DNA from: a bacterium
GTDB taxonomy: Bacteria > DRYD01
Reading direction: 5' to 3'
Assembly: GCA_039630415.1 (NCBI GenBank)
Contig: JBCNVB010000013.1
Coordinates: 96,001 to 160,000, forward strand
Length of the DNA: 64,000 nucleotides
The notes beneath the pieces were generated by a model, which was given only the letters and a program-made list of their open reading frames with translations, did not search any database and was not told the origin of the DNA. A program made the translations under genes and the position numbers. Position 1 is the stretch's first letter; each line of letters begins with the position of its first letter. Positions 9,626 to 34,525 of this stretch are shown here, in pieces.

Positions 9626-9646
9626 CAAATGTAAAAAAAATGTTAA
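9626..9646 (-). promoter_or_regulatory. direct-repeat box TTAACA-TTTTT-TTTACA-TTTG
   Basis: + strand TGTAAA 9630-9635 and TGTTAA 9641-9646; 85 nt upstream of ATG 9544. Confidence 0.6.
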
Positions 9647-9704
9647 ATATTTGTGATAATATCATATTGAAGGCTTTTGCAAATATCTGAAAAATTAATA
9701 TATT

Positions 9705-12359
9705 ATGAGTATGGATCTGAATAAAAGTTATGATTTTAAAGAAGTAGAGAATCAGGTTATCAAAGAATTTAGCCAAATGGAAATTAATCCTCAGTTTGCC
9801 CAGAATACATTCAGTATAGCTGTTCCTCCACCAAATGTTACTGGCTCCCTTCATATGGGACATGCTTTGAATTGTACAATCCAAGATTTTCTGATTAGAT
9901 ATAACCTTCTTTTGGGTAAAGACAGTGTATGGTTTGTTGGTACTGATCATGCTGGTATAGCTACTCAAACAGTCGTTGAAAAAAACCTCCTTAAACAAGG
10001 AATAAGAAGAAGTGATATAACACCCGAAGAATTTCTTAGCAAAATCTGGGAATGGAAAGAACAGTACGGTAGCATTATCTTAGATCAATTTCAAAGACTA
10101 GGCATATACGCAAATATAAAATCTGCTAGATTTACAATGGACCCAGAATATACTAAAGCTGTTAAAAAAGCTTTTGTAGAACTTTACAAAAAAGGTTATG
10201 TATATAAGGGTAAAAGAGTGGTGAACTGGTGCCCCAGATGTTTGACCAGTCTTTCTGATCTAGAAGTGGTTCATAAACCAACACCAACTAAACTCTACTA
10301 TGTAAAATATAAACTGAATGATGGATACATAATAATCTGTACTACTCGTCCTGAAACAATATTAGCAGATACTGCCATAGCTGTCAACCCCAATGATAAA
10401 AGATACTCTTCTTTGATAGGAAATTATGCTGAAGTACCAATAGTTAAGAGGTTGGTCCCTATAATATCTGATCAAGAAGTAGATATGGAATTTGGAACAG
10501 GAGCACTAAAAGTTACTCCAGCCCACGACTTTAATGACTTCAAAATATACCAAAAAAATCAACAAATTGACATAATTAACATATTTAACACCAAAGCCCA
10601 ATTAGTAATAGATAAAATAATAAATGAACACAACAAGGAAATCTTAGAATCCTATCAAGGATTAGATAGATATCAAGCAAGAGAAAAAATCATCAAAGAC
10701 CTAACTGAGCAAAACTTACTACACAAGATAGAGGATTATACAACCAACATAGGTTATTGCTATAGGTGTGATACAGTAATAGAACCCTACTATTCTGATC
10801 AATGGTTTATATCGATGAAAGAACTTGTTAGAAAACCTAAGGAAGTAGTGGAGAATGATCAGATAAGATTTTTCCCTTCAACGTATAAAAAAGTAGTGAT
10901 AGATTGGTATGAGAATATTCAAGATTGGTGTGTTTCTAGACAGATATTATGGGGTCATAGAATACCTGTGTACTACTGTAAAGATTGTGGGTATGAGGAT
11001 GCTAGTGAAGAAGAATTGAGAGTTTGTCCTAAGTGTGGGAAAAATTTAGAGCAAGAGAAAGATGTGTTGGATACATGGTTTAGTTCAGCTTTATGGCCAT
11101 TTGCTGTTATGTATTGGCCCCTCGATAAGTTTCAGAAATATCAACAAAACTACTACCCAACAAATGTACTAACAACTGCAAGAGAAATAGTTTTTCTTTG
11201 GGTTTCCAGAATGATAGTTATGTCAATGTTTTTCTTAAATCAAATACCTTTTAAAGATGTAATAATCCATGCTGTTATACTAGCTCCATCAGGAAAAAGA
11301 ATGAGTAAATCTTTAGGAACAGGAATAGATCCACTTGAGTTAATAGAGAAATATGGAGCGGATGCTTTGAGAATGGGACTAATTATTCAAACTGCAGAAT
11401 CACAAGACGTAAAATTTAGCTATGAAAAAATCGAGATGGCAAGGAATTTTATTAACAAAATATGGAACTCCATAAGATACTTCCAAATAAGAAAAACTAA
11501 TCCCAATGCTAAATCAAAACTATCTTTTCAAACCATCGAACTTATAAACCTTTGGCTATACCTAAATCTCTACGAATTAGTAAATAAGCTTGATCAACTG
11601 GCAAATAACTACAAATTCTTTGATTATTGTATGAGTTTATATCAATTTGTTTGGAATGTTTTCTGTGATTGGTATATAGAGTTTACTAAGTTCATGGATT
11701 ATTCTGATTTTGAAAAAACAGTACAAGATGCCTTAAGAATAATTCTTCTATATCTTCATCCGTTAACTCCATTCTCTACTTATTTCCTGTATCAAAAAAT
11801 ATTCCAAAAAAACATAATGCAAGAAAAAATTCAAAATGCTAAGGATGCGATACAAGAACAAATTCAAAACATAGAGAATGAGGGTATAAAATGTTCGAAA
11901 ATTGATGATTTAATAGAATCAATAAAGCAGATAAGACCATTTATAAATGAGATAATAAATTTAACTGCTAAACAGAATGTAACTGTACACTATCAAAGCT
12001 TTGATGATCAAATAGATCATAGGGATCTAATTTTCTTGTTCAATACATTTACGAAAACTGTACATAATGCAGTTAATGATCATAAAATTGACGAACAACT
12101 ATCAAACTACTTTGTTATAAATACGAAAATAGGAAGTATAAAAATATTCGTAGAAAAGGAATACATATCCAAATTTAGGGAGTTTGTAGACCAAAAAATA
12201 AGGAAGTTAGAGGAAAATGTGAACAAAATACAAAAACTTCTTAACAATTCAGAATTCATTTTAAAAGCAGATAGACAAGTGGTTGATAACTACCGAGAAC
12301 AACTTCAAAACTACCTTCAAATGATAGAGATTAACAAAACGATACTGGATCAAATATAG
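9705..12359 (+). CDS. valS: valine--tRNA ligase
   Basis: [47 protein letters not shown]-terminal coiled coil. Confidence 0.98.
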
Positions 12360-12381
12360 GTTCAGGATTTCACTACAATTT

Positions 12382-13464
12382 ATGCTTTGTAGAAATATTA
12401 GACTTCTAAAACCGGTTGATATAAAAAAACACTTAGATGACTACGTTATAGGTCAAGAAAGGGCAAAAAAGATATTATCAGTGGCTGTTTACAATCATTA
12501 TAAAAGAGTACTATTGGGTACTAGAGGTAGTGTAGTAGAGGAGATGGGATTACAAGAGGTAGAGTTACCAAAATCAAACGTATTGATGATAGGTCCCACA
12601 GGATCTGGAAAAACATACTTAGCTAGTACTCTAGCTAAGATATTGAATGTACCTTTTTCTATATCTGATGCTACTTCTCTAACGGAGGCTGGTTATGTTG
12701 GAGAAGATGTTGAAAATATTCTGCTTAGGTTAATTCAAGCTGCTGGCTGGGATATAGAATATGCTCAGATTGGTATATGCTATATAGATGAAATAGATAA
12801 GATAGCCAGAAAGAGTGCGGATAATCCTTCTATAACGAGGGATGTTTCGGGAGAGGGAGTGCAACAAGCTTTGCTAAAAATCCTTGAAGGAACCATAGCT
12901 AACGTACCTCCTCAAGGAGGTAGAAAACATCCCCATCAACAATTCATACAATTCGATACCACCAACGTACTATTTATAGCTGGTGGAGCTTTCAGTGGTA
13001 TAGAGGATATAATAAAATCCAGATTAAAAACTTCTTCCATAGGATTTAGAACAAATCCAACAAAACAGGAAGAAACTGACTATATATCATCAGTAGACAA
13101 TGAAGATCTCTTAAAGTATGGATTTATACCTGAGTTCATAGGTAGGTTTCCTGTTATAGCAACTCTATCTAAATTGGGTTTGGAGGAATTGAAGGATATA
13201 CTTGTTAAGCCGAAGAACTCTATAATAAAACAGTATCAAAAATTACTAGCTTTAGATGGTATAAAGCTAACGGTGGAAAAGGAAGCGATAGAAACTATAG
13301 CACAAAAAGCTTACGAGAGTAAGACGGGTGCAAGAGCACTCAAGTCTATTGTAGAAAATATACTCCTAGATGTAATGTTTGAAATACCTCACCTAGAAAA
13401 TGTCAAGGAAGTGATAATTACTAAGCAAGTAGTAACTGAAAACAAAAAACCGATCTTGAAATGA
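12382..13464 (+). CDS. clpX: ATP-dependent Clp protease ATPase ClpX (lacks N-terminal zinc-binding domain)
   Basis: [48 protein letters not shown] loop. Confidence 0.96.
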
Positions 13465-15245: not shown

Positions 15246-15260
15246 AAAGGAGGAAAAACT

Positions 15261-15806
15261 ATGAAAATAACCTTCTATACTCGAGGAGTAGAAATAGATG
15301 ATCAAACTAGGCTCAGAATAAAAGAAAAATTTGATAGACTAAACCGCTACTTTTCCAAAATAGAAAAATATCAAACTGAAGACACGCTAAAAATTGATAT
15401 ACATGTAGACTATCAAAAAGGCATGTATAATGTCAAAATAATTCTTGATCTTGATGGACAAGAATTGGTTATCAAAGACTCTGCCAATAGCTTAATGGAT
15501 GCAATAAACTCTGTCGTTGATTCAATGGAAATTAAACTCTCAAAATATAAGGATAAGGTTGTTACAGGACATAGACATAGAATCAGAGTAGTTGATAACC
15601 AAGAAAACGAGGAAACACAAACTAAGGAGGTAGATATAATTAGAAAAAGGATAGAAGTACCAGTAATATCTGAAAGAAAAGCAATAAACGCTTTATTACA
15701 GGATAGATCTATTTCTTACTTCGTTTTTTATAACAGGGATACTGACAAAATAAATCTAATCAGCAGAACTGAAAATGGATTGATCTTAACTGAATTAGTT
15801 ATATAA
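15261..15806 (+). CDS. hpf: ribosome hibernation promoting factor, long form
   Basis: S30AE-like N-domain (KLSKYKDK) plus C-terminal FVFYNRDTDKIN domain; directly upstream of secA. Confidence 0.85.
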   Translation: MKITFYTRGVEIDDQTRLRIKEKFDRLNRYFSKIEKYQTEDTLKIDIHVDYQKGMYNVKIILDLDGQELVIKDSANSLMDAINSVVDSMEIKLSKYKDKVVTGHRHRIRVVDNQENEETQTKEVDIIRKRIEVPVISERKAINALLQDRSISYFVFYNRDTDKINLISRTENGLILTELVI

Positions 15807-15821
15807 AACAACCTTTTAAGT

Positions 15822-18320: not shown

Positions 18321-18382
18321 TATCATCTTTGTTTAGTATTATCCACTGTCCATTCACGTTTTGTCTATAATCTAACGTCATT

Positions 18383-18403
18383 TTTACATTTTTTTCACAT
18401 TTA
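18383..18403 (+). promoter_or_regulatory. direct-repeat box TTTACA-TTTTT-TTCACA-TTTA
   Basis: Hexamers at 18383 and 18394; 56 nt before ATG 18456. Confidence 0.65.
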
Positions 18404-18455
18404 CTGCTCTAAAAGAAGCTATTTCAGTGAAATCCTAAGATAAGGAGGTAAAATT

Positions 18456-19556
18456 ATGAACGTTAACATATATGTAGGACCAAGAGAATATAACGCTTTA
18501 TGTACGGCAATATCACAGATAGTTTTTTCACAGTCCAGGGAAGTTAAGGAATATGTTCCGATTGGTTTTAACTATAGAAACCATCTATTTGAAATTCAAG
18601 AGAATTTGGAAAGAGAATACATTAAAGCATTGGGTTTAGAGGACGAATCTCATGCTGAAAATTTGGCCAGCTTTTTTATAGAGCAAATAGATTCTCAAAT
18701 ACCACAAAAATTGTACTATGTTAAAGGTAAGAAAGTTGAGGTAATAGCAGCTAATCCAGAAGAGGGTGTTAAACTTGCTAAAGAGTCAGATGAATTTATA
18801 AATAGATTTGCTTCCTACTTATCCAAACCATTCCATTCTAAACAATATGTTATGACGCTCCATAAAGATCCACATAGAAAGGTATTGACTGCTTTGCATA
18901 AACCCGGTCAAAGTGTAGTTATAGGACAAGTTTATAATCAAAATGGGAATTCTACATTGGAAAGAGATGTTTTATATCATGAATTGGGTCATTCTTTATT
19001 GGATGGTATAGTTCCTCAGGCTAAGCGATGCTTTAGTGAAGCTTTTGCAGACATAATGGCATTCCTGAATCAAGCTTCAAAACCAGATCAAGTAAAGGAT
19101 ATAAAAGACTTCAGAAAAAGTAACAGAATATCTCAAATTGCTGAAAATAGTGCTATTGCAAAAGATCACAAGCTGAGTTATATACGTGATTTGGCTCAAC
19201 AACATAGATATAATTGGGTTGATGAATATGAAGCTGGATCAGCTGTAGCAAGTGCTTTTTACAGAACATGGGCAAATTATGTAGAGGGTTTGAAATCAAA
19301 GGGTATACCTCAAGAAGAAGCGGTTAAGATAGCCAATGATAAATTTTCTAGGTTAGCAATAAGGGCTGCTGAAAACTTAGCTAATCATAAAGAACCCAAA
19401 GCCATACACTATGCGGAGTCTATACTAAAAAATCTCGATTCAGATCATGAACTCAGAAAATTATACTACGAGGAACTGCAAAAAATCGGATATAAAGAAG
19501 CTTTAGAGCATCAAAGGCGTGTTGAGGAAGAATTAAGAAAGTTAGGGATACATTAA
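18456..19556 (+). CDS. thermolysin-like (gluzincin) zinc metalloprotease paralog, unit A
   Basis: DVLYHELGH..FSEAFADI..YIRDL; AAGGAGG RBS; no signal peptide. Confidence 0.75.
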   Translation: MNVNIYVGPREYNALCTAISQIVFSQSREVKEYVPIGFNYRNHLFEIQENLEREYIKALGLEDESHAENLASFFIEQIDSQIPQKLYYVKGKKVEVIAANPEEGVKLAKESDEFINRFASYLSKPFHSKQYVMTLHKDPHRKVLTALHKPGQSVVIGQVYNQNGNSTLERDVLYHELGHSLLDGIVPQAKRCFSEAFADIMAFLNQASKPDQVKDIKDFRKSNRISQIAENSAIAKDHKLSYIRDLAQQHRYNWVDEYEAGSAVASAFYRTWANYVEGLKSKGIPQEEAVKIANDKFSRLAIRAAENLANHKEPKAIHYAESILKNLDSDHELRKLYYEELQKIGYKEALEHQRRVEEELRKLGIH

Positions 19557-19579
19557 AATGTTAAAGAGGTGAAAAGATT

Positions 19580-20668
19580 ATGAATATTTCCATTGAGAAA
19601 GAAAGGTTGTTCTCTATTTATGATAGGGCAAGGGAATATAATGCTCTATGCAGAACTGTGTCAGAAGTTATTCGTTCACATTCTAGAGAGGTTAGAGATT
19701 ATGTTCCAATCAGTTTTAGCTATATAAATCATTTGTTAGAAATTCAGGAGGCTTTAGAAAGGGAATTCGCGAAAGCATTAGATTCATTAGGTTTAGAAAG
19801 AGAATATAGAGTTGAGAATTTGGCAAGTTCTTTTATGAAATACATGAATATTGTGATGCCAGAAAAATCATACTACGTTAAAGGTAAAAAAGTTGAAGTA
19901 ATAGCTGCCAATTCTCAAGAAGCAGTTAGACTTGCAAAAGAATCTGATGAATTCATAAATAGATTTAGTTCTTACTTATCTAAACCATTTAATTCTAAGC
20001 ATTATGTTGTAACGCTCCAACAAGGTGGAAAATTAAATGCTTCGTATATGTCAGGTGAAAATGTTGTTTTGGGAGGGGTATATAATGAAAAAGGGAATTC
20101 CGTACTGGAAAGGGATGTTTTATATCATGAGCTAGGTCATTCTTTTTTGAATAGTATGGTTCCTCGGGCTAGAGAATGTTTTCATGAAGCTTTTGCGGAC
20201 ATAACGGCATTTTTGAATCAAGCCTCAAAACCTGATCAGATAAAGGATATAAAAGACTTTAGAAAAAGCAATAGAATATCTCAAATAGCTGAGAATACGG
20301 CTATTGCAAAATTTTATGGAATGAATTATGTACGTGATCTGTCTGGGCAGAATAGGTATAAATTGAATTCAAATGATGCACATGGTCGTGGTGCTGCAGT
20401 AGCAACTGCTTTTTACAGAACATGGGCAAATTATGTAGAGAGTTTGAAATCAAAAGGTATATCTCAAGAGGAAGCAGTTAGGATAGCTAACGACAAATTT
20501 TCTAGGGTAGCAATAAAGGCTGCCGAAAACTTAGCCAATCACAAACAACCGTCAGCTTTAGACTATGCACAATCTATACTGAAAAACCTTGATACAGATC
20601 CTGAAATTAAAAAGTTATATTACAGTGAGCTAGAAAAAATTGGATATCAACAAGCTTTAAAAAGTTAA
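19580..20668 (+). CDS. thermolysin-like zinc metalloprotease paralog, unit B
   Basis: LNASY, DVLYHELGH, FHEAFADI, YVRDL, DAHGRG. Confidence 0.78.
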   Translation: MNISIEKERLFSIYDRAREYNALCRTVSEVIRSHSREVRDYVPISFSYINHLLEIQEALEREFAKALDSLGLEREYRVENLASSFMKYMNIVMPEKSYYVKGKKVEVIAANSQEAVRLAKESDEFINRFSSYLSKPFNSKHYVVTLQQGGKLNASYMSGENVVLGGVYNEKGNSVLERDVLYHELGHSFLNSMVPRARECFHEAFADITAFLNQASKPDQIKDIKDFRKSNRISQIAENTAIAKFYGMNYVRDLSGQNRYKLNSNDAHGRGAAVATAFYRTWANYVESLKSKGISQEEAVRIANDKFSRVAIKAAENLANHKQPSALDYAQSILKNLDTDPEIKKLYYSELEKIGYQQALKS

Positions 20669-20693
20669 CAGAATTTTTTTGTAGTATATTGTT

Positions 20694-20714
20694 TTTACAT
20701 TTTCTTTACATTTA
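20694..20714 (+). promoter_or_regulatory. direct-repeat box TTTACA-TTTTC-TTTACA-TTTA
   Basis: Hexamers at 20694 and 20705; 59 nt before ATG 20770. Confidence 0.65.
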
Positions 20715-20769
20715 CTTGTGTATGAAAAACTATCTTACTTAAATCCCCATATAAGGAGGTAGAAAGATT

Positions 20770-22977
20770 ATGAGTATTTATTCGATGCAAGAGAATATAG
20801 GATTTAGGATTTTTTGTATGGGGATAGCGCAATTGCTTAATTCACAGTCTGCAGGAATCGGAGACTATGTTCCAGTTAATTTTAATTATAGAAATCATAT
20901 GGTTGAAGTCCAGGAAGCGATGATGAAAGAATATATAAGAGCATTAGGTTTGAGTGAATCTGATGCTAGGAAGGAAGTAAACTTTTTTATGGAATTTGAT
21001 CTTCGTGGCAGAATGCCAGAAAAGTCGTATTACGTTAGAGGTAAAAACGTTGATGTAATAGCTGCGAATCCGGAAGAAGCTGTTATACTTGCTAAAGAAT
21101 CTGATGAATTTATGAATAGATTTGCTCCCTATTTGTCCAAACCATTTAATTCCAAACATTATGTTATAGCGTTGAATCGTGATAGTGATTCAGCACGATT
21201 GAACGCTTCGTATAAACCTGGTTCAAATGTGGTTGTTGGACAAGTTTATAATGAAAAGGGAAATTCTACATTGGAAAAAGATGCTTTGTATCACGAGTTG
21301 GGTCATTCATTGTTGGATAATATAGCTCCTCGTGCGGGATCTTGCTTTCACGAAGCTTTTGCTGATATAATGACGTTTTTAAATCAAGCTTCAAAACCAG
21401 ATCAAATAAAGGATATAAAAGACTTCAGAAAAAGTAACAGAATATCTCAAATAGCTGAAAATACAGCTGTTGCAAAAGATAGAGAAATAAATTACTTACG
21501 TGATTTAGCAGAACAACATAGATATAATTTGCTTGATGAATATGAGGCTGGATCAGCGGTAGCAGGTGCTTTTTATAAAACGTGGGCAAATTACGTAGAG
21601 AGTCTAAAAGCAAGAGGTATACCTCAAGAGGAAGCAGTTAAAATGGCTAATGATAAATTTTCTAGGGTAGCAATAAAGGCTGCCGAAGACTTAGCTAATC
21701 ATGAAAAACCCCTAGCTATACACTATGCGGAGTCTATACTAAAAAATCTCGATTCAGATCCTGAGATTAAAAAATTATACTACAAGGAGCTAGAAAAAAT
21801 CGAGTATCAGGAAGCTTTGAAGTACTACGAAAAATCCAAAAATGGATGGGATAAAGAAACTCTATATACAATTTATGAAGAATCAAAAGTATCTAACACT
21901 TTTTGCAATACAATATCGAAAGTAATTAATTCCCAATCCAAAGTCAAGGATTATGTTCCGATTAGTTTTAATTATAAGGATTATATGTTTGAGATTCAAA
22001 AAGCTTTGGAAAAAGAATATATGAGAGCATTGGATGCATTAGACTTAGAGGGGAAATTTAATCCCAAAGATCTTACAGATACTTACATGAAAAGTATCAA
22101 AGTTTTAATGCCGGAAAAATCATATTATGTTAGGGGTAAGAAAGTTGAGGTAATAGCAGCAAATCCTGAAGAGGCAGTCAAACTTGCAAAAGAGTCGGAT
22201 GAATTTATGAACAGGTTTACTCGCCATATATCTAAACCTTTCAATTCCAAACATTATATTATGACAATCAAAGGAGAGAAAGATTTAAATGCTTCGTATT
22301 TGACGGGTGAGAATGTGGTAAAGGGGCAGGTGTATAACAAAAATGGTAATTCTACGCTTGAGGGGGATGTTTTGTATCATGAGCTAGGTCATTTATTGTT
22401 GGATAATATAGTTCCTCAGGCTGACATGAGCTTTGGTGAAGCTTTTGCAGACATAATGGCATTTTTGAATCAAGCCTCAAAACCTGACCAGATAAGGGAT
22501 ATAAAAGACTTTAGAAAAAGCAATAGAATATCTCAAATAGCTGAAAATAGTGTTATTGCAAAGCAGGGAAAAGAAAGTTATCTGCGTGATTTAGCCGGCG
22601 AACATAGATATAGTATGTATAATAATGTTTACGAAAGTGGTGCTGCTGTAGCTAGTAGTTTTTACAAAGCATGGGCAAATTACGTAGAGAATTTGAAATC
22701 AAAAGGTATACCCCAAGAAAAGGCAGTAAAGATAGCTAATGAGAAGTTTTCCAGGGTAGCTATAAAGGCTGCTGAAGACTTAGCTAATCATAAACAACCC
22801 TCAGCTTTAGATTATGCAGAGTCTATACTAAAAAATCTTGATTCAGATCCTGAGATTAAAAAATTGTATTACAGTGAGCTAGAGAAAATTGGATACCAAG
22901 AAGTTTTAAAGGATCTAGAGTATATCAAGGAACAGGCAAGAAAATATGAATCACAACATTATTCTGATAGATGGTAA
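20770..22977 (+). CDS. tandem two-domain thermolysin-like metalloprotease (A'-B' fusion)
   Basis: Two complete NASY..YHELGH..EAFADI units in one ORF. Confidence 0.78.
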   Translation: MSIYSMQENIGFRIFCMGIAQLLNSQSAGIGDYVPVNFNYRNHMVEVQEAMMKEYIRALGLSESDARKEVNFFMEFDLRGRMPEKSYYVRGKNVDVIAANPEEAVILAKESDEFMNRFAPYLSKPFNSKHYVIALNRDSDSARLNASYKPGSNVVVGQVYNEKGNSTLEKDALYHELGHSLLDNIAPRAGSCFHEAFADIMTFLNQASKPDQIKDIKDFRKSNRISQIAENTAVAKDREINYLRDLAEQHRYNLLDEYEAGSAVAGAFYKTWANYVESLKARGIPQEEAVKMANDKFSRVAIKAAEDLANHEKPLAIHYAESILKNLDSDPEIKKLYYKELEKIEYQEALKYYEKSKNGWDKETLYTIYEESKVSNTFCNTISKVINSQSKVKDYVPISFNYKDYMFEIQKALEKEYMRALDALDLEGKFNPKDLTDTYMKSIKVLMPEKSYYVRGKKVEVIAANPEEAVKLAKESDEFMNRFTRHISKPFNSKHYIMTIKGEKDLNASYLTGENVVKGQVYNKNGNSTLEGDVLYHELGHLLLDNIVPQADMSFGEAFADIMAFLNQASKPDQIRDIKDFRKSNRISQIAENSVIAKQGKESYLRDLAGEHRYSMYNNVYESGAAVASSFYKAWANYVENLKSKGIPQEKAVKIANEKFSRVAIKAAEDLANHKQPSALDYAESILKNLDSDPEIKKLYYSELEKIGYQEVLKDLEYIKEQARKYESQHYSDRW

Positions 22978-22980: not shown

Positions 22981-23001
22981 TTTACATTTTTTTTACAATT
23001 A
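22981..23001 (+). promoter_or_regulatory. direct-repeat box TTTACA-TTTTT-TTTACA-ATTA
   Basis: Hexamers at 22981 and 22992; 57 nt before ATG 23055. Confidence 0.65.
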
Positions 23002-23054: not shown

Positions 23055-23627
23055 ATGCCAGGAATAGAAGCAGGAAAAATAAACATAAATGCAAAGAATG
23101 TAGTAATTAGAAATAATGATGTCGGAATAAAGGGGAAAAACGTTAAAATTCAGGGAGAAAATTTAGAATTGATATACAATGATAAAGGTATAGATACTGT
23201 TAATTTGTCAGCTACTACTGATAATCTAAAGATTAGTTCTAACAAGCTTGGTATTCAGGTAACGAATGGTTCACTAAAAACCAAATCCGAAACCTTAATA
23301 TCTAATAATCATAAAGGAATAAAGGCTCATAATTTGGGTCTCAAGAGTAAGGGTGATTTAGTGATAGTGGGTAATGGAGTAGGAGCTTCTGCTGAAGGTA
23401 CTGTATCTTTACAAGGATCAAATGTAGAAATAAAATCAAATCAGGTAGGCGTATCGGGTAAGAATGTTTTTGTTAAGGGTGATAAGGTATCAATTGGTGA
23501 CAATACTGTTGGGTTTGATGTAGATTCAATGAATGCTAATGTTCAAGATTTTCAACTGTATGACAATGTTATAGCTATAAAGCAAAGTACTAAGGGGAAA
23601 AAGAAACAAGACAAACAATATAACTAG
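23055..23627 (+). CDS. hypothetical beta-helix (N-x-x-G-I repeat) protein
   Basis: AGGAGG RBS at 23041 supports ATG 23055; about 21-22 aa repeats NNDVGIKG, NDKGID, NKLGIQ, NHKGIK, NGVGAS, NQVGVS, NTVGFD. Confidence 0.7.
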   Translation: MPGIEAGKININAKNVVIRNNDVGIKGKNVKIQGENLELIYNDKGIDTVNLSATTDNLKISSNKLGIQVTNGSLKTKSETLISNNHKGIKAHNLGLKSKGDLVIVGNGVGASAEGTVSLQGSNVEIKSNQVGVSGKNVFVKGDKVSIGDNTVGFDVDSMNANVQDFQLYDNVIAIKQSTKGKKKQDKQYN

Positions 23628-23639
23628 GGGGATTAGAAA

Positions 23640-24014
23640 ATGGAAATAAGACAAACAAACCATTTAATAACTCCCAGAGTTGAATCTAATAGAGTTGAAC
23701 CCAAAAATAGCCAAAAACAACCTACCCCTCATCAAACAGGTATAAAGGGAGAAAATGTAAATATACAAGCGGATAATGTATACATTGTAAATAACACGTA
23801 TAACTACCCTGACATGATAAGTTCGGCTACCTATCCTACCATAAATACGAATCCTATTTTGAATATTGGTAACCTATATAGGACGATGTGCTTACCGTAT
23901 TTTAATCCTTATAGTATGTACCTGTATCCATACTTTGCCTACATGCCTGGTCTTATATGGGGTAGTATGTTTAGTAGCTTATTCAGCAACGTTTGGAATA
24001 TGTATTGGTGGTAA
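23640..24014 (+). CDS. hypothetical protein with one beta-helix repeat and Tyr/Pro/Met-rich tail
   Basis: GGGG RBS; TGIKGENVNIQADNVYIVNN matches repeats of the upstream gene. Confidence 0.65.
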   Translation: MEIRQTNHLITPRVESNRVEPKNSQKQPTPHQTGIKGENVNIQADNVYIVNNTYNYPDMISSATYPTINTNPILNIGNLYRTMCLPYFNPYSMYLYPYFAYMPGLIWGSMFSSLFSNVWNMYWW

Positions 24015-25971: not shown

Positions 25972-26045
25972 AGGGATATTGAAATCTGTGGAGAATAGTA
26001 TAATGATATTTTTGGATTTGATTTTGTAGAAAGGGGAAAAACTAA

Positions 26046-27050
26046 ATGCCAGAATTAAGAAAAGATCCAGTTCTAAAAAGATGGGTAATAATAGCGACAG
26101 AAAGAGCTTCAAGACCAAATGATTTTAAGCAAAAGGTAAAGGATGAACCTGGAGACCCATCAAAATGTCCCTTCTGTCCAGGAAATGAATATATGACTCC
26201 TCCCGAAGTATTGGCTTACAGAAAACCCGGAAGTTTAACCAATGGACCCGGTTGGTGGATAAGAGTCGTGAATAACAAATTCCCAGCTCTCAAACCGGAA
26301 GGAGAGTTGGACAAAAAGGGAATTGGTATATACGATTTCATGAATGGAATAGGATACCATGAAGTACTCATAGAGGGGGAAGATCATTTCTCAACCCCTG
26401 TAACAAATTCAAAGGAAATGTATATGGAAATAATATGGGCTTATAGAGACAGAATTATAGAGTTATCCAAGGATTCAAGAATCAAATATGTGATAATTTT
26501 TAAGAATCATGGTAAAGATGCAGGAGCTTCGCTTTATCATCCCCACTCGCAAATAATATCAACCCCAATTATTCCTTCTGTGATTAAAAATGAAATAGAT
26601 AACGCAAAAGAATACTATGATTTACGTGATAGATGTATGTTTTGTGATATAATAACGCAAGAGAGAGGACATCAGGATAGAATAGTTTTTGAAAACAATT
26701 CTTTTATAGCCTTTTGTCCATTTGCTTCAGCTTTTCCTTTTGAAACCTGGATTATTCCTAAACGGCACTATCATAGATTTGAGGATATAGATAAAAACCA
26801 TGTTGTAGATTTGGCAGAAACTATGAAAGTTGTTCTTTCTAAGCTATATCTGCTTTTGGATAATCCTCCTTATAATATGATGCTTCATACAGCACCTCCA
26901 AATTCAAATAGTAAAGACTATTTTCATTGGCATATAGAGATAATTCCAAGGTTAACTAAGGTAGCTGGGTTTGAATGGGGAACAGGTACATATATAAATC
27001 CAATGTTACCGGAAACAGCAGCAGCAGAACTACGAAAACAACAAATATAA
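26046..27050 (+). CDS. galT: galactose-1-phosphate uridylyltransferase
   Basis: MPELRKDP, CPFCPGNE, NKFPAL, GASLYHPHSQI, HWHIEI.PR. Confidence 0.95.
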   Translation: MPELRKDPVLKRWVIIATERASRPNDFKQKVKDEPGDPSKCPFCPGNEYMTPPEVLAYRKPGSLTNGPGWWIRVVNNKFPALKPEGELDKKGIGIYDFMNGIGYHEVLIEGEDHFSTPVTNSKEMYMEIIWAYRDRIIELSKDSRIKYVIIFKNHGKDAGASLYHPHSQIISTPIIPSVIKNEIDNAKEYYDLRDRCMFCDIITQERGHQDRIVFENNSFIAFCPFASAFPFETWIIPKRHYHRFEDIDKNHVVDLAETMKVVLSKLYLLLDNPPYNMMLHTAPPNSNSKDYFHWHIEIIPRLTKVAGFEWGTGTYINPMLPETAAAELRKQQI

Positions 27051-27748
27051 TGAAATACCTACTAATAGCTCTAATAATAGTTGGTGTATCTATTGCAGGA
27101 TACTATGCAGGACAGTACTTCTACAAAGAAAAAATAGGTAAAATTCCGGAAAATAATAAACCTCTTATATCTCCGCTAATAGAGGAAAAAAGACAAACAA
27201 ATATAAATGATCTAAATAAACCCTCTGTAATTGTACCAGACTTTAACCAACCAGAAACAGACAAAAAAATAGCTAAAACTAATACAGCAACTACAACCGT
27301 TACAACTACTACCGTTACAAATACTACTGTTACAACTACTACTGCTAACTTGGCCCAAACTACAATAACAGATCAACAAAATGATCAGACAACCGGTCAA
27401 AAAACAACAAACCAAATAACTACAAATCAAACAACTACAGATCAAACTACAACAGGTCGAGTAACAGAGTCTAAACCATCAGAGAGTGAAATAACGGAGG
27501 ATAAGACAGCGGATCAACAGGGAAATTACTACATCCAGGTAGGATCTTTCTCTTCTCTAGAAAATGCCCAAAATATGAAGAAAAATCTTGAATCATTGGG
27601 AATAAAATGTATAATTGAACAAATAATAAAATCCGATCAAACGGTGTACAGAGTAATAATAGGACCTTATCAAACTGAAGAAGAAGCGAATCAAGAAAGT
27701 CAAAAGTTAAAGAAACTAGGGTTTGATAATGTTGTTAAAAGTTATTAA
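27050..27748 (+). CDS. SPOR domain protein with Thr/Gln-rich linker
   Basis: N-terminal TM, Thr-rich stalk, YYIQVGSFS and YRVIIGPY SPOR motifs. Confidence 0.88.
   Translation: MKYLLIALIIVGVSIAGYYAGQYFYKEKIGKIPENNKPLISPLIEEKRQTNINDLNKPSVIVPDFNQPETDKKIAKTNTATTTVTTTTVTNTTVTTTTANLAQTTITDQQNDQTTGQKTTNQITTNQTTTDQTTTGRVTESKPSESEITEDKTADQQGNYYIQVGSFSSLENAQNMKKNLESLGIKCIIEQIIKSDQTVYRVIIGPYQTEEEANQESQKLKKLGFDNVVKSY
27280..27455 (+). repeat. low-complexity coding repeat (TTTV / xQTT units)
   Basis: ACA/ACT-rich degenerate repeats encoding TATTTVTTTTVTNTTVTTTT...NQITTNQTTTDQTTT; boundaries approximate. Confidence 0.7.
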
Positions 27749-27773
27749 TAAAATTGCATAAAGGAGGGCAGCT

Positions 27774-28094: not shown

Positions 28095-28098
28095 ATAT

Positions 28099-28872: not shown

Positions 28873-28874
28873 CA

Positions 28875-30920
28875 CTATATTTCAAACTTTTGGATATCTT
28901 GTATGCCAACGGTATAAGTTCTTCCATTAACTTCTACGGTTACTTTATTACCTTTTATCTTTACTACTCTTCCAACTTGGTCAAAAACTCTTATTTTCAC
29001 GAAATCGTTTACATTAAGAGTTTCTGTGGTTTGATTTTCTTCAACGTAGGACAAATGATCTGCTAGGTCGAAGTTTTTCAAAGATTCTAGTTTTTTTTCA
29101 AATTTGTGGATATTTTTTGTTTTTAGCTTTTGTAATTCTTCTTCCCACTTTGAGATTAAATTTTTTATCTGTACAGAGTATTGATTGTATAGTTTGTGAT
29201 AAATTTCATCTCTTATTTTTTGCTTTAGGTTATTTTTTAGTCTTTCTAGATTTTGTTTTTCTTGTTCTAGCTGGTATATTAACTGATCTAGTTGTTTTTG
29301 TTTTTGTTGAACATTTTGATAGTCATTTAGGAGGTTGTGGGAAATTTTTTCGAGTTTAGCATGATATTCCTCGGAAGAAAAGTAATGTTGCAGTTCTTGG
29401 ATTTTGTTAAGTATTTCTTCGGGGAAGTCTTTTAGTAAATTGAGGGGTAGGGATGGTAAAAGTATGCCATATATCAGTTTGTATTCGCTTATATTTTTTT
29501 CGAAGTTATATGCTACTGAGCAGCATGTGATTTTGTCATAGAAATAATTTTTAACATGATTATAGTGTGTGGAAAAGACAACGTAAGCTCCTTTGTTGAG
29601 AATATATTCTATGATGGATATGGATATTAAACTGGCTTGGATAGGGTCTGTACCTGAAGCAGGTTCATCCATGATAACTAGGGTGTTAGAATCTAAATTA
29701 CGTATTATTTCTTGCCAGTATTTAACGTGACCTGAAAAAGTACTAAGATTTTCCTGTATGCTTTGCGGATCGGTAACATCATAAAAAACTTTAAGTACAG
29801 GAAGATTAGCTTTTGTACAAAACACTGGTAACCCTATATTGGACAATAGAAAGCAAATAGTGATTGATTTAAGTGCAACACTTTTACCACCATTATTTGG
29901 ACCAACTATCATCAAACCTCTTTCAAACTTAACATCTATTGGAACACAATTTTCTATTAGTGGATTTATCAAATTTTCTATATCCACTATTCTTGTGTTA
30001 TGATTAGGTAAGCAAAAAGTTTGGCAAATGCTAAAATAAGCGTTGAAGAATTCTAGGAAACTACAGACTTTTAAAACTTGCGAAATATTTCTCAGGTTTT
30101 CACATATTTTTTGATAGAGATGATTAAGTATTTTTTGTATTTCTATGTTTTCAAGTGAACGAAGAAACAAAAGTCTGTTGTTATAACTTATTATTGAGCT
30201 TGGTTCAAAGAAAGCGGTTTTGTGAGTCCACGAGTAATCCTGTATTATTCCCTCAAACATACTTACATATTGTGAGTTAACACAAATAACAAATCTACCA
30301 GAACGATAACTTACCTCGTTTGAAACTAAGTATTTTGAGTTTTGTCTTATGAAATCTGTTAATTTTTGGGGTATGATTTTGCTTAATGAAGAAATTTCGT
30401 GCCTTATTTTTTTTAACTCTGGAGTACTATCGTCTTTGATATTACCGTTTGAGTCTATAAAATAATCGATTAAGCTTAGAAGTTCTTTCATATTTGGCGT
30501 TGATGTTACAAAACTATATATTTTTGAATACTCCTTTTTATTTTTCAAGTATTCATTGAATTTCTTTTTAAAGTTTACGAATGAACTCAGAAAATCACCG
30601 ATTTTTAGAATAATTTTTGAGTCAAAGATTGAATATGTAGGAGTTATATCAAAGTGTATGTTGTATAAGTCTTCAGAGTCTTGTATTTGGATAGAAAAGA
30701 TTTTGCAAATATCTTGATCTACGAATCTTGTATGTACTTTGTTTAGGTATTCTCTGTCTTTTAAAAGGGTATAGTACTGGAAAGATATTTCTTTTAGGTT
30801 GGTTATGGGCCTTTGGTGATGTAGTTTAGTAAATATATATTCTAGAACTGGTTTTGCAAGTGAAGATGATTTATGATCAATTAGCTCTTTTATTTGGTCT
30901 ATTTCTTTAAGATTTATCAC
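28875..30920 (-). CDS. mutS2: MutS2 family ATPase (ends at KOW-like domain, no Smr)
   Basis: GPNNGGKS, QSIQENLSTFSGH, DEPASGTDP, STHY, coiled coil; GTG start. Confidence 0.88.
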   Translation of the reverse strand: MINLKEIDQIKELIDHKSSSLAKPVLEYIFTKLHHQRPITNLKEISFQYYTLLKDREYLNKVHTRFVDQDICKIFSIQIQDSEDLYNIHFDITPTYSIFDSKIILKIGDFLSSFVNFKKKFNEYLKNKKEYSKIYSFVTSTPNMKELLSLIDYFIDSNGNIKDDSTPELKKIRHEISSLSKIIPQKLTDFIRQNSKYLVSNEVSYRSGRFVICVNSQYVSMFEGIIQDYSWTHKTAFFEPSSIISYNNRLLFLRSLENIEIQKILNHLYQKICENLRNISQVLKVCSFLEFFNAYFSICQTFCLPNHNTRIVDIENLINPLIENCVPIDVKFERGLMIVGPNNGGKSVALKSITICFLLSNIGLPVFCTKANLPVLKVFYDVTDPQSIQENLSTFSGHVKYWQEIIRNLDSNTLVIMDEPASGTDPIQASLISISIIEYILNKGAYVVFSTHYNHVKNYFYDKITCCSVAYNFEKNISEYKLIYGILLPSLPLNLLKDFPEEILNKIQELQHYFSSEEYHAKLEKISHNLLNDYQNVQQKQKQLDQLIYQLEQEKQNLERLKNNLKQKIRDEIYHKLYNQYSVQIKNLISKWEEELQKLKTKNIHKFEKKLESLKNFDLADHLSYVEENQTTETLNVNDFVKIRVFDQVGRVVKIKGNKVTVEVNGRTYTVGIQDIQKFEI

Positions 30921-30937
30921 TTTTTATGCTAGAGATT

Positions 30938-31912
30938 CTACAATTCTTCAATGCTGTATACCTTTTCGCTTATTGATTTATCAAATCCTTTTCTTATCAG
31001 ATTTGATAATATTTTGTTTGGCATTAGTTCTAAGAATATGTTGGAGGGGTATTTTTGATTGATTTTTTCGATTGTAAGAATCCAATTTACGGGATTTATC
31101 ATTTGGTTTTTCATTTCTTGTTTTATTTGGTTTGGGTCAGTGAGATTTTGGGAGTTTATGTATAATTCCAACTTTGGGGAATTGAAGTTTACCTGGTCGA
31201 TATGTTTGGAGAGATAGTTATTAGCTTCTTGCATCATGTAGCTGTGGAATGCTCCTGATACTTTCAGAGGCAAAATTTTGATCGTCGGTATTTGTAACTT
31301 TATTTCTTTTTTTAGTTCTTCTGATTTTTCTACTGGACATGAGATTATGAGTTGGCTATAAGAATTGTAGTTTGCTATTGTTGAGTTATAGTTTTGTACT
31401 ATAGTTTGAAGTTTTTGAATTGTTTGTGGGTTAAAGTTATCTATGACTGCAAACATTGTTCCCTCTTTTGAATAGTTGTGCATAAAGTATCCTCTTTTTA
31501 CTACTAAATCTATACCTTGGTCTAATGTAAGTGATTGTGAGCATACTAGTGCTGAGTATTCCCCTAGACTATGTCCTGCTAGACAACTTATCTTATCACC
31601 AAGTATGTCTTTTATACATTCAAAGCATGATACTGAAACTGAAAAAATCAGTATCTGGCTATACAATGTGATGTTTATCTTTGATTCATCCTCTAGTAAA
31701 GATATTAGGTCGGTATCTATGTAGTCTTTGTATTGTGATTTTATTTTTTGATTGATATAGTCGAAAGTTTTTCTGTATATTGGGAACTGGTTGTACCAAT
31801 CCATTCCCATGGATTTATACTGGCTGGCTTGACCTGGAAAAAGTAGATTTATTTTTGTATTTTCAGTTATTTGCTTTATTTTGATTAGTTTATTTTCCAA
31901 CTGTTGTAGCAT
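30938..31912 (-). CDS. fabD: malonyl CoA-ACP transacylase
   Basis: FPGQASQ, GHSLGEYSAL, ANYNS..Q, VSGAFHS. Confidence 0.95.
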   Translation of the reverse strand: MLQQLENKLIKIKQITENTKINLLFPGQASQYKSMGMDWYNQFPIYRKTFDYINQKIKSQYKDYIDTDLISLLEDESKINITLYSQILIFSVSVSCFECIKDILGDKISCLAGHSLGEYSALVCSQSLTLDQGIDLVVKRGYFMHNYSKEGTMFAVIDNFNPQTIQKLQTIVQNYNSTIANYNSYSQLIISCPVEKSEELKKEIKLQIPTIKILPLKVSGAFHSYMMQEANNYLSKHIDQVNFNSPKLELYINSQNLTDPNQIKQEMKNQMINPVNWILTIEKINQKYPSNIFLELMPNKILSNLIRKGFDKSISEKVYSIEEL

Positions 31913-31951
31913 ATTTATATTATTCTTTTGGCTTTGAATTGAACCCTTTCA

Positions 31952-31994
31952 TTAACAAAATTTTTACATTTATTTAAACCAAAATTAACATTTA
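31952..31994 (+). promoter_or_regulatory. extended 11-bp-period box TTAACA/TTTACA/TTAAAC/TTAACA
   Basis: Hexamers at 31952, 31963, 31974 (degenerate) and 31985; last one 53 nt before ATG 32044. Confidence 0.65.
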
Positions 31995-32043
31995 GGAGAA
32001 ACAAAGAAGTAGAGGTAGAAAAAAAATTTGGGAGGAGATAAAA

Positions 32044-33060
32044 ATGATGAACTTTAACAATCCTGGAACAGCACCAATCTTTCAAAGTCAACCTCTAAAT
32101 ACCAATCCTGTTCAAAATCAACTGCCTACCCAAACTACTGCCCAATCTGCCACTGGAAATACATCACCAACATCTTCTGATCCATTTGAAAAGCTAATGA
32201 ATAAATCCCTGGCTGAAAAAACTAACGATAAACCTACTAATTTACAATCAAATGATTTGCAATCAAATAATCTGGAAACACCAGAATTACAAAGATATAG
32301 AAAACAAATAGAAGCTCTAGATCTTGATCAGTTAAGAATGGAAAGGAAGAGACTAGTTGATTTAATAGTTAAATACATGAATGAAGGTAACACTGAGTTA
32401 CTTGATGAAGCTCAGAAGAAGTATAAAATAGCCGTGCAAGTTAGTGATAGTAAAGTTATGAATTTTTCAGCTGGAGCTATAGCTCAAACCCCCAAAACTG
32501 AGCAAACCCAAGTGGCTCAAAATCAATCTCAACAAGAGGACTTCCTTAAAAAGCTAAGGGAATCCGAAATACTTCCTCCTGACAATACTCAACCACCTAC
32601 TATACCTCAGCAAACGGCTATATCACAAAAAACAAACATTGTTGATACAACAACTACATCAGTAGTAGGAGCTAATCCCAATGTTCAAGTTTTCTCTGCC
32701 CCAACCACCGAATCGGTAATACAAGGATTTGTAAATAATCAACCTACTCCTACTATGAACCAACCTTTAAATCAATATGGTACGATAAATGCTCTAAATA
32801 CGATGAACATGCAACAAATGAACAGTTTATTCTCAAACCCTCAGGGTATGTTTAATTCTCTAAATACGATAATGAATCCGATGGCACCTGTACACCCATA
32901 CTCTCCTCTTATGACCAGCTATGGAATATATGCCCCTAATCTAAGAAGAGATCCCACAATGAACGCTTTTCTAAATGGTGAACTTTATCCTACTGATATG
33001 GCAGAACTTGGTGTTTGGTCTGTTCTTAACAGAGAATTGTTCAAAAGAACAGACGAATAA
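32044..33060 (+). CDS. hypothetical N/Q/T/P-rich low-complexity protein with short helical domain
   Basis: GGAGG RBS; long ORF; no signal peptide. Confidence 0.75.
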   Translation: MMNFNNPGTAPIFQSQPLNTNPVQNQLPTQTTAQSATGNTSPTSSDPFEKLMNKSLAEKTNDKPTNLQSNDLQSNNLETPELQRYRKQIEALDLDQLRMERKRLVDLIVKYMNEGNTELLDEAQKKYKIAVQVSDSKVMNFSAGAIAQTPKTEQTQVAQNQSQQEDFLKKLRESEILPPDNTQPPTIPQQTAISQKTNIVDTTTTSVVGANPNVQVFSAPTTESVIQGFVNNQPTPTMNQPLNQYGTINALNTMNMQQMNSLFSNPQGMFNSLNTIMNPMAPVHPYSPLMTSYGIYAPNLRRDPTMNAFLNGELYPTDMAELGVWSVLNRELFKRTDE

Positions 33061-33226
33061 ATCTAAAATAAGATCGAGTAAATCTAAAATAAAAATTCAA
33101 GATAAAACGTGTAAGTTTTTAGTCTATTTTTAGTCTAGGTTATAGAGGCATGTAGTGATGATTTTAAAAATACTTAAATACTGTATTAAAGAATTTTGAC
33201 GTCTGCTTTGTCTAGATTATTCTTGT

Positions 33227-33679
33227 TTATTGTTGTTGTATAGTTTCAAGAGCTTTTGTAGCCATTGTTTTAATTGATTCGACTACACTCAAATTAGCTT
33301 CATACATTCTGGAAGCTTGTATCATTTTTGCCATTTCCTCAACTACATTTACATTTGGCAGAGTAACATATCCATCTTTATCAGCGTTTGGATTAGTAGG
33401 ATCGTATACTTTTCTAAATCCTGAGTTATCTTGTCTTACTCCAACAACATTTGCTGCATTTAATTGGTTTTCAAATTCTTCTCCAAAACTAACGGTAAGT
33501 ATTCCTTCTTCTTCTGGATTGTTTAAAGGTTTAGAGGAGACGATAAGATCTTTTCTTTTGTAGGGTTCTCCGGTGATGGTGTTAGTGGTGTTTGCGTTAG
33601 CTATGTTTTCTGCGATTATATCCATCATTTGTCTGCTTACGCTCATTCCGCTAGCTGCAATTCTGAGAGAGTCAAACAT
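33227..33679 (-). CDS. flgC: flagellar basal-body rod protein FlgC
   Basis: ASGM..ENIANANTT, PYKRK, YDPTNPNAD..GYV.LPNVN..EM..MI.ASR.YEAN. Confidence 0.96.
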   Translation of the reverse strand: MFDSLRIAASGMSVSRQMMDIIAENIANANTTNTITGEPYKRKDLIVSSKPLNNPEEEGILTVSFGEEFENQLNAANVVGVRQDNSGFRKVYDPTNPNADKDGYVTLPNVNVVEEMAKMIQASRMYEANLSVVESIKTMATKALETIQQQ

Positions 33680-33721
33680 TTTCTATCCCCCCTTAACTAC
33701 TGAATTTAAGCTAATTTTAGG

Positions 33722-34024
33722 CTATATGTTGGTTTGGAATAGAGTTTTTGTTCCTTCAATTAGTTTTTGAGTTATACCTCTTATCATTTTGAGGGTTAGT
33801 CCTGCTTCTTGCCAAGCAAAAACTACTTGGTTTACATCTTTGACTTCTCCAGAAGCTAATTTTCTGCTTATATCTCCTGCTTCCAGAAGCTTGTTGTTTG
33901 CTGAACCTATAGTATTTTTTATAACATCTCCGAATGTAACCATTCCACTTTCTGCAGTACTTTTAGTTTCAACAAATGGGTTTGCTAATCTAGTTGGTTT
34001 TGTAATATCAATGGGGTTAAACAT
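33722..34024 (-). CDS. fliE: flagellar hook-basal body protein FliE (divergent)
   Basis: 100 aa; F.D.IK, LASGEVKDVNQVV.A..EA.LTL pattern; located between flgB and flgC. Confidence 0.8.
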   Translation of the reverse strand: MFNPIDITKPTRLANPFVETKSTAESGMVTFGDVIKNTIGSANNKLLEAGDISRKLASGEVKDVNQVVFAWQEAGLTLKMIRGITQKLIEGTKTLFQTNI

Positions 34025-34039
34025 AATTATCTACCTCCT

Positions 34040-34450
34040 TTACATTCTTTCAAATATTTCGGTTAGCGATTTAAGGGGTGAGGTTGCTCCTCTCAAAAGA
34101 AGTTGGTATTGGATTTGATTTTCTAGAGATTTATTCATTTGTTCACTTATGTCGACTTTTTTACCTGTGGAGGTTGCTTCAGGTTTAAAGCTAGCCAGTT
34201 CTATGCTTCCAGATATATGCTCTGGATCTTCTGCTTGTAACTTTACGTTAAATGGGTCGGATTGATTATCAAACTTTTCTTTCCTTATTTCTGCAAAAAC
34301 TTGTTCAAAGTTTAGGTCTTTAGCTACGTAGTTTGGATTGGTCGCGTTTGCTATGTTGCTTGCTATTACTTGTTGTCTTTGCCAGGCAGAATCTACTGCT
34401 TTTCTCATGTACTCATAATGATCTCCTAGTAGGTCTTTCATGAAACTCAT
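34040..34450 (-). CDS. flgB: flagellar basal-body rod protein FlgB (divergent C-terminus)
   Basis: RQQVIASNIANATNPNY.AKDL.FE; VD..EQM...ENQIQYQ. Confidence 0.88.
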   Translation of the reverse strand: MSFMKDLLGDHYEYMRKAVDSAWQRQQVIASNIANATNPNYVAKDLNFEQVFAEIRKEKFDNQSDPFNVKLQAEDPEHISGSIELASFKPEATSTGKKVDISEQMNKSLENQIQYQLLLRGATSPLKSLTEIFERM

Positions 34451-34504
34451 TTTTTTCCACCTCCAAGTTATTTTGTTTGTACACCTGTTTAAAAATTTTT
34501 TAAA

Positions 34505-34525
34505 TAATTGTAAAATAAATGTTAC
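34505..34525 (-). promoter_or_regulatory. direct-repeat box GTAACA-TTTAT-TTTACA-ATTA upstream of flgB
   Basis: + strand TGTAAA 34509-34514 and TGTTAC 34520-34525; 58 nt before flgB ATG 34450. Confidence 0.62.

Follow-up and report, generated by a model that had tools for sequence, protein, structure and literature searches.

A 17-bp direct repeat marks a candidate WalR-type regulon joining flagellar base genes, hydrolases and orphan genes

Why should one and the same 17-bp direct repeat, TTHACA-N5-TTHACA, lie ahead of the flagellar genes flgB-fliE-flgC and ahead of several orphan genes in a single stretch of bacterial DNA, and which protein reads it? The stretch in question, referred to here as the window, comprises 64,000 nt (contig 5, 96001-160000) of the source genome, G000, which belongs to an uncultivated, deep-branching group from hot springs. 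Our reading, to which we give a probability of roughly 0.7, is that the box is the putative binding site of an OmpR-family regulator with a WalR-type DNA-binding domain, and that its copies mark one regulon. The G000 assembly amounts to 1.40 Mb in 31 contigs with 32% G+C (68% A+T) and is 89% complete; a simple codon-usage caller gave 1320 open reading frames (ORFs) covering 93% of the genome. For comparison we used nine other genomes of the family, distributed over two genera, and one other genome of the order, the 11 genomes of the order set being 71-90% complete. Boxes were located with the exact pattern and with a position weight matrix (PWM), and the counts were set against dinucleotide shuffles and, as a further control, against the reversed, uncomplemented pattern.

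The exact pattern occurs five times in the window, compared with a mean of 0.33 and a largest count of two in 100 shuffles. Matches with one mismatch are not above chance (13 against 10.85 expected). A first-pass annotation of the window had listed six sites and all six are present where it placed them, five exact and one with a single mismatch; since one-mismatch matches are not above chance, it is solely conservation in relatives that carries the sixth site, at 34509-34525. Across the genome there are 36 exact copies, 32 of which are intergenic by the ORF calls. When the 644 intergenic segments were taken by themselves they held 30 exact boxes, while 200 shuffles gave 0.56 ± 0.76 and never more than three; the reversed control pattern has five copies in the same DNA. 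The excess over shuffled background is thus confirmed both in the window and in the intergenic DNA of the genome, and the repeated box is real. Four exact boxes fall in the 1.31 Mb of coding DNA. Three of these stand just 5' of a co-oriented gene, for instance the third subtilase paralogue, and here the neighbouring gene or its start has probably been mis-called; the remaining one looks like a chance match. With the PWM, 47 matches score at least 16, and 41 of them are intergenic.

TTTACA is the form of the first hexamer in 23 of the 36 exact copies and of the second in 26. The spacer has at least four T in 24 copies, and a run of T precedes the first hexamer. On the other strand all 36 copies read TGTDAA-N5-TGTDAA; 32 fit TGTWAH in both halves and the other four have TGTGAA in one half. 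The extended box is therefore close to two near-identical tandem units of 11 bp, TGTWAAAAAAA twice on one strand. Past the box itself the sequences flanking the copies in G000 show no likeness. A WTTR following the box, described in the first-pass annotation, was rejected as an extension of the motif, being found after only 5 of the 36 copies, all five within the window. The consensus given for WalR/VicR is TGTWAH-N5-TGTWAH (PMC4168254), and the footprinted VicR sites of S. mutans described there lie on either strand, one of them reading TGTAAA-N5-TGTTAA, with A favoured at position 7. The box in G000, read on the other strand as TGTWAA-N5-TGTWAA, is the same in hexamer, spacer length and 11-bp period, and likewise has A favoured at position 7 and sites on either strand.

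The box is kept in the relatives, as the comparison suggested in the first-pass annotation brought out for all nine other family genomes. A strict pattern, TTHACAYTTTTTTHACA, has 12-41 copies in each of these nine, one copy in the sole other genome of the order and none in 20 unrelated genomes, its reversed control giving 3-24 copies; the general pattern has 24-76 copies in each family genome, where its reversed control has 9-38. At individual genes the placement is conserved as well. At fliF the box is inverted and 77-81 nt away from the start in all eight loci with enough upstream DNA (one further locus ends 80 nt upstream of the start). At flhB it is likewise inverted, at a distance of 96-111 nt in eight of ten family genomes (170 nt in one of them), and the order relative has an inverted box at 82 nt. 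At flgB a direct box was found in all nine genomes compared, its first half degenerate in every one. The gene for a SigH-type sigma factor (NCBIfam SigH, 300.9 bits, cut-off 208), which is not in the G000 assembly, is preceded by an exact direct box in 9/9 relatives. Orthologues of the subtilase have a box with at most one mismatch in eight of ten cases, a half-site in one and none in one, and nothing else is conserved between the box and the ribosome-binding site. A homologue of the HEXXH proteins of the window has an exact inverted box in all four genus mates that possess the gene, whereas the boxes of the G000 copies are direct.

To see how the box is placed relative to genes we sorted the 52 sites with a PWM score of at least 15. 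In 23 the box is co-oriented with the only nearby start, 43-80 nt (median 63) from the start codon; 11 are inverted relative to the only nearby start, at 69-116 nt (median 85); 14 lie between divergent genes; and four have no start within 130 nt, one of these being beside the replication origin. Because this count is mixed, the earlier claim that every site is co-oriented with its downstream gene is true within the window and fails genome-wide. No −10 box was found at a fixed distance 3' of the box, either in a position profile or in pattern counts, and such an element was accordingly rejected. The box is used in both orientations, with the orientation kept at orthologues, and is not a promoter element. 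A separate pair of conserved elements, AGGRAAA and TARAAT about 15 nt apart, was seen between the box and the start of fliF, flhB and the SigH-type gene, with the box approximately 16, 50 and 29 nt, respectively, 5' of the pair. The pair is similar to elements seen ahead of many tRNA genes. These core-promoter positions are tentative because the pair was read by eye and is weak when counted genome-wide.

Two proteins with a Trans_reg_C domain are encoded in G000. The main candidate for the regulator, the only canonical OmpR-family member in the genome, lies outside the window (contig 8, 30108-30797). Its best NCBIfam match is YycF, with 272.6 bits, followed by MtrA, RpaB and PhoB with scores nearly as high. 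The best match of its DNA-binding domain among solved structures is YycF of B. subtilis (2D1V, E 4.7e-25), VicR and WalR being also in the top five; it shares the string WGYDY.GD.RTVDV..RRLR.K.EDNP with YycF, and the recognition helix is nearly identical. Among the proteins compared its conservation is far above average: of the six genus mates, four have a version with 93-94% identity and two a version with 88-89%, while the values for the second genus and for the order relative are 82-83% and 67%. For FliF, identity across the two genera is 51-53%. Together with the match of the other strand to the WalR/VicR consensus, the presence of this WalR-like protein supports the OmpR/PhoB-family reading of the dispersed signal that had been put forward in the first-pass annotation. 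Encoded beside it are a receiver-only protein, an orphan of 221 aa, a kinase of 391 aa and an ORF cut by the end of the locus (92 aa seen, no Pfam family). An operon of the walR-walK-walHIJ type, in which the PAS/HAMP kinase has about 600 aa, was not found at this locus, and in view of its match scores and this different neighbourhood the protein would seem to be WalR-like in its working and not an orthologue of WalR.

It would seem likely, from what is common in the family, that two regulator molecules line up head to tail along the same face of the helix, each on its own hexamer, and that the contig 8 protein is the one that binds. The approximately 45 sites would then constitute one regulon made up of flagellar base and export genes, hydrolases and lineage-specific orphans mostly without a secretion signal, to which the relatives would add the SigH-type sigma gene. 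Where the box lies 5' of a recognisable core promoter, as at fliF, flhB and the SigH-type gene, it may activate, by analogy with WalR, RpaB and PhoP (PMC6525291, PMC4168254). The direct sites close in to the gene may instead stand in for a −35 element, as at Pho-type promoters, or may repress.

Several points weigh against this assignment. The contig 8 regulator is under the NCBIfam equivalog cut-off for YycF (272.6 against 340 bits), and the 391-aa kinase beside it matches HATPase_c only and is not WalK-like. No box lies 5' of the regulator's own operon, and autoregulation was therefore rejected. A second, divergent OmpR-type regulator (contig 6, 8442-9125) could be the binder. The pair AGGRAAA-N15-TARAAT is weak genome-wide, with nine sense and six antisense copies compared with 2.4 in shuffles, and the start codons were all taken from a simple ORF caller. 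Finally, at the direct sites the box is the only conserved element 5' of the candidate cargo genes, which would also fit a self-sufficient promoter.

The two Trans_reg_C proteins raise the alternative that the box is bound by another protein, either the contig 6 regulator or an unrecognised factor, while the WalR-like one acts elsewhere. The score below the YycF cut-off and the missing WalK-like partner would be in keeping with this, and similar 11-bp direct repeats are read by many OmpR-family members. However, the winged helix of the contig 6 protein is barely recognisable (Pfam 23.1 bits, cut-off 26.2), while the recognition helix of the contig 8 protein is almost that of YycF, whose known box equals the motif, and the contig 8 protein as a whole is strongly conserved, so that we consider binding by another protein improbable. 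That the motif is a by-product of T-rich intergenic DNA or of paralogous promoter copying hardly deserves belief: the genome is indeed 68% A+T, the spacers are T-rich and two of the sites in the window are paralogous copies, but the 30 intergenic boxes stand against 0.56 in shuffles and five for the reversed control, the flanks have no likeness beyond the box, and the boxes are kept at orthologues in two genera despite otherwise diverged intergenic DNA.

The box might also be a compact promoter for an alternative sigma factor, arranged like the −24/−12 promoters of sigma-54 with a start about 10 nt 3'. This is worth testing because no −10 box follows the motif and the box alone is conserved at the candidate cargo genes, as upstream of the subtilase orthologues. 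Its halves have the 11-bp spacing of −24/−12 promoters, and the box 5' of a sigma gene in 9/9 relatives recalls self-activating sigma circuits. On the other hand, at 11 strong sites the box runs opposite to the one gene that starts nearby; at fliF and flhB this is kept across genera, where a promoter would fire into the end of the preceding gene, and in the HEXXH family the box is direct in G000 and inverted in four relatives. The GG/GC signature of sigma-54 promoters is absent from the box, and sigma-70-type factors require about 17 bp between their elements, not 5. Sigma-54 itself was rejected, there being no Sigma54_DBD in G000 (89% complete) and only weak AAA+ matches (Sigma54_activat at most 28.6 bits, in long AAA+ proteins) besides the conserved inverted sites. 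A compact promoter is on this evidence very unlikely, and a box bound by the WalR-like regulator remains the reading that we prefer.

Boxes of this kind are known from several OmpR-family systems. The regulator's DNA-binding domain is most like that of YycF, in line with the WalR/VicR box; the host, however, is not a Firmicute, the regulator has no adjoining WalK-like kinase or walHIJ genes and lies below the YycF equivalog cut-off, and the genes served here are flagellar base genes, a sigma gene and proteases, where WalR/VicR controls mainly cell-wall hydrolases. Genes with boxes here do include those for an M23 peptidase and an SLT transglycosylase, though with weak ones only. The PhoP box of B. 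subtilis consists of TT(A/T/C)ACA repeats and would, by our own derivation from that consensus, be a WalR/VicR-type box read on the opposite strand. It and the PhoB box of E. coli, whose consensus is quoted in PMC4168254, share with the present box the hexamer in the direct sense and the 11-bp period, and in both cases direct boxes are near genes without a recognisable −35. Unlike in the PhoP/PhoB systems, no phosphate genes (pst, phoU) were found beside the regulator, the one place searched for them, and the regulon is unrelated to phosphate scavenging apart from one gene of the nuclease/phosphatase family.

The OmpR-family master regulator CtrA of Caulobacter has sites before early flagellar genes, fliF among others, and beside the replication origin. 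The boxes before fliF and next to a DnaA-box cluster would be alike in function. CtrA box identity was nevertheless rejected: the hexamers are predominantly TTTACA, in the proportions given above, they depart from the pattern TTAA-N7-TTAA, the T-rich spacer and flank being the signal, and the regulator is not CtrA-like by sequence. For the cyanobacterial regulator RpaB, PMC6525291 gives an HLR1 element of (G/T)TTACA(T/A)(T/A) repeats, a global regulon and a distance to the transcript start that sets activation or repression. The repeat sequence and the global regulon agree with what is seen here, and RpaB is the third-best NCBIfam match of the regulator, whereas the HLR1 repeats are 10 and not 11 bp apart and RpaB serves photosynthesis genes. 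Elements of this kind are known; what is new is the lineage, the set of targets and the tie to a flagellar apparatus without filament or stator. Our literature search on this lineage turned up no paper on the box motif, the regulator or a filament-less flagellum.

Secretion is usual for subtilases, clostripains and thermolysin-like enzymes. Pfam scans covered 30 co-oriented target genes and 16 further ones, and more were added by following paralogues and orthologues. The hydrolases among them are three S8 subtilases, three C11 clostripain-like proteins, the HEXXH family and a protein of the endonuclease/exonuclease/phosphatase family, together with the M23 peptidase. Further targets encode two FG-GAP proteins, several signal-peptide proteins, a Lon-N-domain protein, an HD-GYP protein and EF-hand proteins, and 12 of the first 30 have no Pfam family at all. 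The list also contains RidA, endonuclease V and two lysine 5,6-aminomutase alpha genes, and with such ordinary cytoplasmic enzymes among the targets the earlier remark, made from a scan of the window by eye, that no box was noticed co-oriented ahead of housekeeping genes is not supported genome-wide. A hydrophobic N-terminus is absent in 27 of 35 co-oriented regulon proteins, a proportion similar to that in the genome as a whole; when these 27 are set against other proteins of the non-hydrophobic class, their N-termini are enriched in N (1.94-fold) and Q (1.46-fold) and depleted in L (0.63) and E (0.59). The genome is rich in unusual proteases and also encodes a 1444-aa bacterial alpha-2-macroglobulin, a protease trap (contig 3, 14593-18924).

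Outside the window, several box-like sites on contig 18 (approximately 85590-86410) adjoin a cluster of at least 15 DnaA boxes (TTTTCCACA/TTATCCACA) that is likely to be the replication origin. In one relative (G008, contig 26, 49800-53300) 13 exact boxes, mostly paired 23 nt apart, are interleaved with the palindrome TTGACAAAAGTCAA in a repeat array of 1.3 kb that has 15 DnaA boxes next to it. A box cluster at the origin fits a global regulator and is reminiscent of CtrA, MtrA and Spo0A, which act at theirs.

One refuting condition named for the first-pass reading was that boxes would be missing at the other flagellar operons. Boxes were found at five of the seven flagellar base units mapped in G000, two of them weak. 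The flgB-fliE-flgC unit has a degenerate direct box, fliF an exact inverted one and flhB-flhA an inverted one with a single mismatch; the weak boxes are a direct one at SLT-fliK-flgE/G-flgF/G (score 11.7-12.5) and an inverted one at fliM-fliN-fliP (score 10.8-11.2). No box scoring at least 10 lies 5' of the fliG cluster or of a lone flgG-like gene on contig 3. The flagellar genes form small units, each of one to five genes, dispersed among housekeeping genes (contigs 12, 26, 3, 21 and 18, besides the window); fliF is isolated, with an orphan on one side and pheS on the other, and flhB-flhA precede an RNB-domain gene.

What sort of apparatus these genes would build bears on the meaning of the regulon. 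For the export gate and base, FlhB, FlhA, FliF, FliP, FliM/N, FliG, FlgB/C and FliE were searched for and found; two rod proteins of FlgF/G size, a FliK-like protein, the SLT transglycosylase and a 271-aa protein with an FlgE/F/G D1 domain are also present. Since the FliK-like and D1-domain proteins are there, a short hook is possible. Flg_bbr_C matches FlgC and two rod-size proteins per genome, with one extra weak, sub-threshold match of 271-279 aa in the three genomes of the second genus and in the order relative. Flagellin_N and the stator family MotA_ExbB had no match in any of the 11 order genomes, at 71-90% completeness and with the limit that very divergent versions could escape; FlgI and FliD had none in G000, the genome in which they were sought.

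Lysobacter enzymogenes OH11 lacks a functional fliC, and its secretion of a protease and other enzymes depends on FliI and FlhB (PMC7688988); Buchnera keeps a flagellar export system without a filament (PMC8109811). The same export gate, rod and base genes are kept here and flagellin is missing. The present case differs in that the stator is also unmatched, in 11/11 genomes and thus lineage-wide in an order of free-living thermophiles, and in that a shared box ties the base genes to candidate cargo. A published survey took the flagellar genes of this group as a sign of motility (PMC4791363).

With flagellin and MotA unmatched across the order, an export machine regulated together with its cargo becomes plausible, and more plausible than from the window alone. 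It is possible, although doubtful, that the flagellum is a non-rotating, filament-less exporter of about 25 signal-less proteases, a nuclease and orphans, with machine and cargo switched by one WalR-type regulator that also sits beside the origin and controls a SigH-type sigma factor, a logic like that of CtrA built from different parts. Eight regulon proteins with Sec-type N-termini and the several cytoplasmic enzymes among the targets speak against export, and co-regulation alone does not show it. The box can be read from sequence and so gives some 45 candidate target promoters in a deep-branching lineage, in a list that joins flagellar base genes to normally secreted enzymes here without signal peptides. 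If this link is true, a flagellum has been kept for secretion throughout a lineage, the cargo list and the switch are already in hand, and the change from flagellum to secretion system becomes testable with cloned parts. If only the regulon is true, a WalR-type box and domain serve different genes far outside the Firmicutes.

The sites and genes of the window are collected in the table below.

Boxes and associated genes in the window (positions count from the first nucleotide of the 64,000-nt stretch)
Feature	Position	Strand	Remarks
Orphan, 243 aa, N-rich N-terminus, hydrophobic C-terminal part	8813..9544	−	no Pfam family above cut-off
Three-hexamer box, 11-bp period (ATCACA, TTAACA, TTTACA)	9630..9657	−	exact pair 9630-9646
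Exact box, 56 nt 5' of ATG 18456	18383..18399	+	
Tandem pair of HEXXH genes (366 and 362 aa), separated by 23 nt	18456..20668	+	HELGH...EAFADI; no signal peptide
Exact box, 59 nt 5' of ATG 20770	20694..20710	+	paralogous copy of 18383 promoter
Fused double HEXXH protein, 735 aa, two paralogous halves	20770..22977	+	
Exact box, 57 nt 5' of ATG 23055	22981..22997	+	
Orphan repeat protein (190 aa), then 124-aa orphan	23055..24014	+	neither with a Pfam family
Exact box and third hexamer (31985-31990), 22 nt further on	31952..31990	+	
Q/N/T/P-rich low-complexity orphan, 338 aa	32044..33060	+	no signal peptide, no Pfam family
flgB (weak Pfam match), fliE, flgC, unusual order	33227..34450	−	
Degenerate box GTAACA-N5-TTTACA, then TTAAAA, 58 nt 5' of flgB	34498..34525	−	core 34509-34525
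Fifth HEXXH paralogue, 39-40% identical to the first	34540..35598	−	
Decayed box-like site TTTACA-N5-TTAAAG, 57 nt 5' of ATG 35598	35656..35672	−	alone below any threshold

The first-pass annotation was right in placing four of the boxes 56, 59, 57 and 58 nt from the start codon, given the ATG at 23055 for the third gene. The further hexamer it noted at 31985 is present, and its view of the 18383 and 20694 sites as paralogous copies is upheld. The box at 9630 is co-oriented with the ORF at 8813-9544, 85 nt from the ATG at 9544, and inverted relative to valS, 64 nt from the called start at 9711 (9705 in an alternative ORF listing). The box at 31952-31968 is 75-78 nt from an ATG at 32044 or 32047, and a divergent gene (30938-31912) starts 39 nt away.

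The HEXXH family of G000 comprises five domains, one gene being a two-copy fusion. Their predicted fold (pLDDT 76, from five paralogous rows) has its best matches among M4 thermolysin-family structures, although weak ones (E 2.8e-3, TM 0.38-0.51), and the proteins may on this model be thermolysin-like, weakly so. A search of a collection of 5.8 billion proteins, limited to near-length relatives, returned none beyond two proteins of the window itself. The homologue in the relatives is a single copy, 34-38% identical, in four of the ten other order genomes, all genus mates; with this query neither the second genus nor the order relative gave a match.

Some minor observations concern sigma factors and their promoters. 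A canonical RpoD was not found in G000, where the only RpoD-like sigma factor has 355 aa and a weak region-2 match (contig 5, 179929-180996). Every family genome has a form of it of 356-395 aa, and an RpoD match of 89.6 bits on a short contig of G006 may be foreign. The sigma factors of the family also include the SigH orthologue, a SigH paralogue and SigF/B-like proteins, although Spo0A is absent; half sites resembling TGTCGAA near the SigH gene had suggested Spo0A, which was rejected with Spo0A_C found in 0/10 family genomes. Upstream of many of the 42 tRNA genes of G000 there is a recurring pair, AGGGAA or AGGAGG and, about 13-16 nt further on, TAGAAT(A), which is closer to a SigH-type promoter than to TTGACA/TATAAT; ahead of protein genes its genome-wide count is weak. 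About 80 nt 5' of the gene for tRNA-Phe (192949) lies an inverted box whose spacer has 4 nt in place of 5 (TGTAAAAAATGTAAAA; contig 5, 192850-192866, minus strand). Within the window, an ORF missed by the caller (26975-27748, plus strand) encodes a membrane anchor and a long T/N/Q-rich low-complexity stretch, and its C-terminal part has, by eye, the look of a SPOR-type domain.

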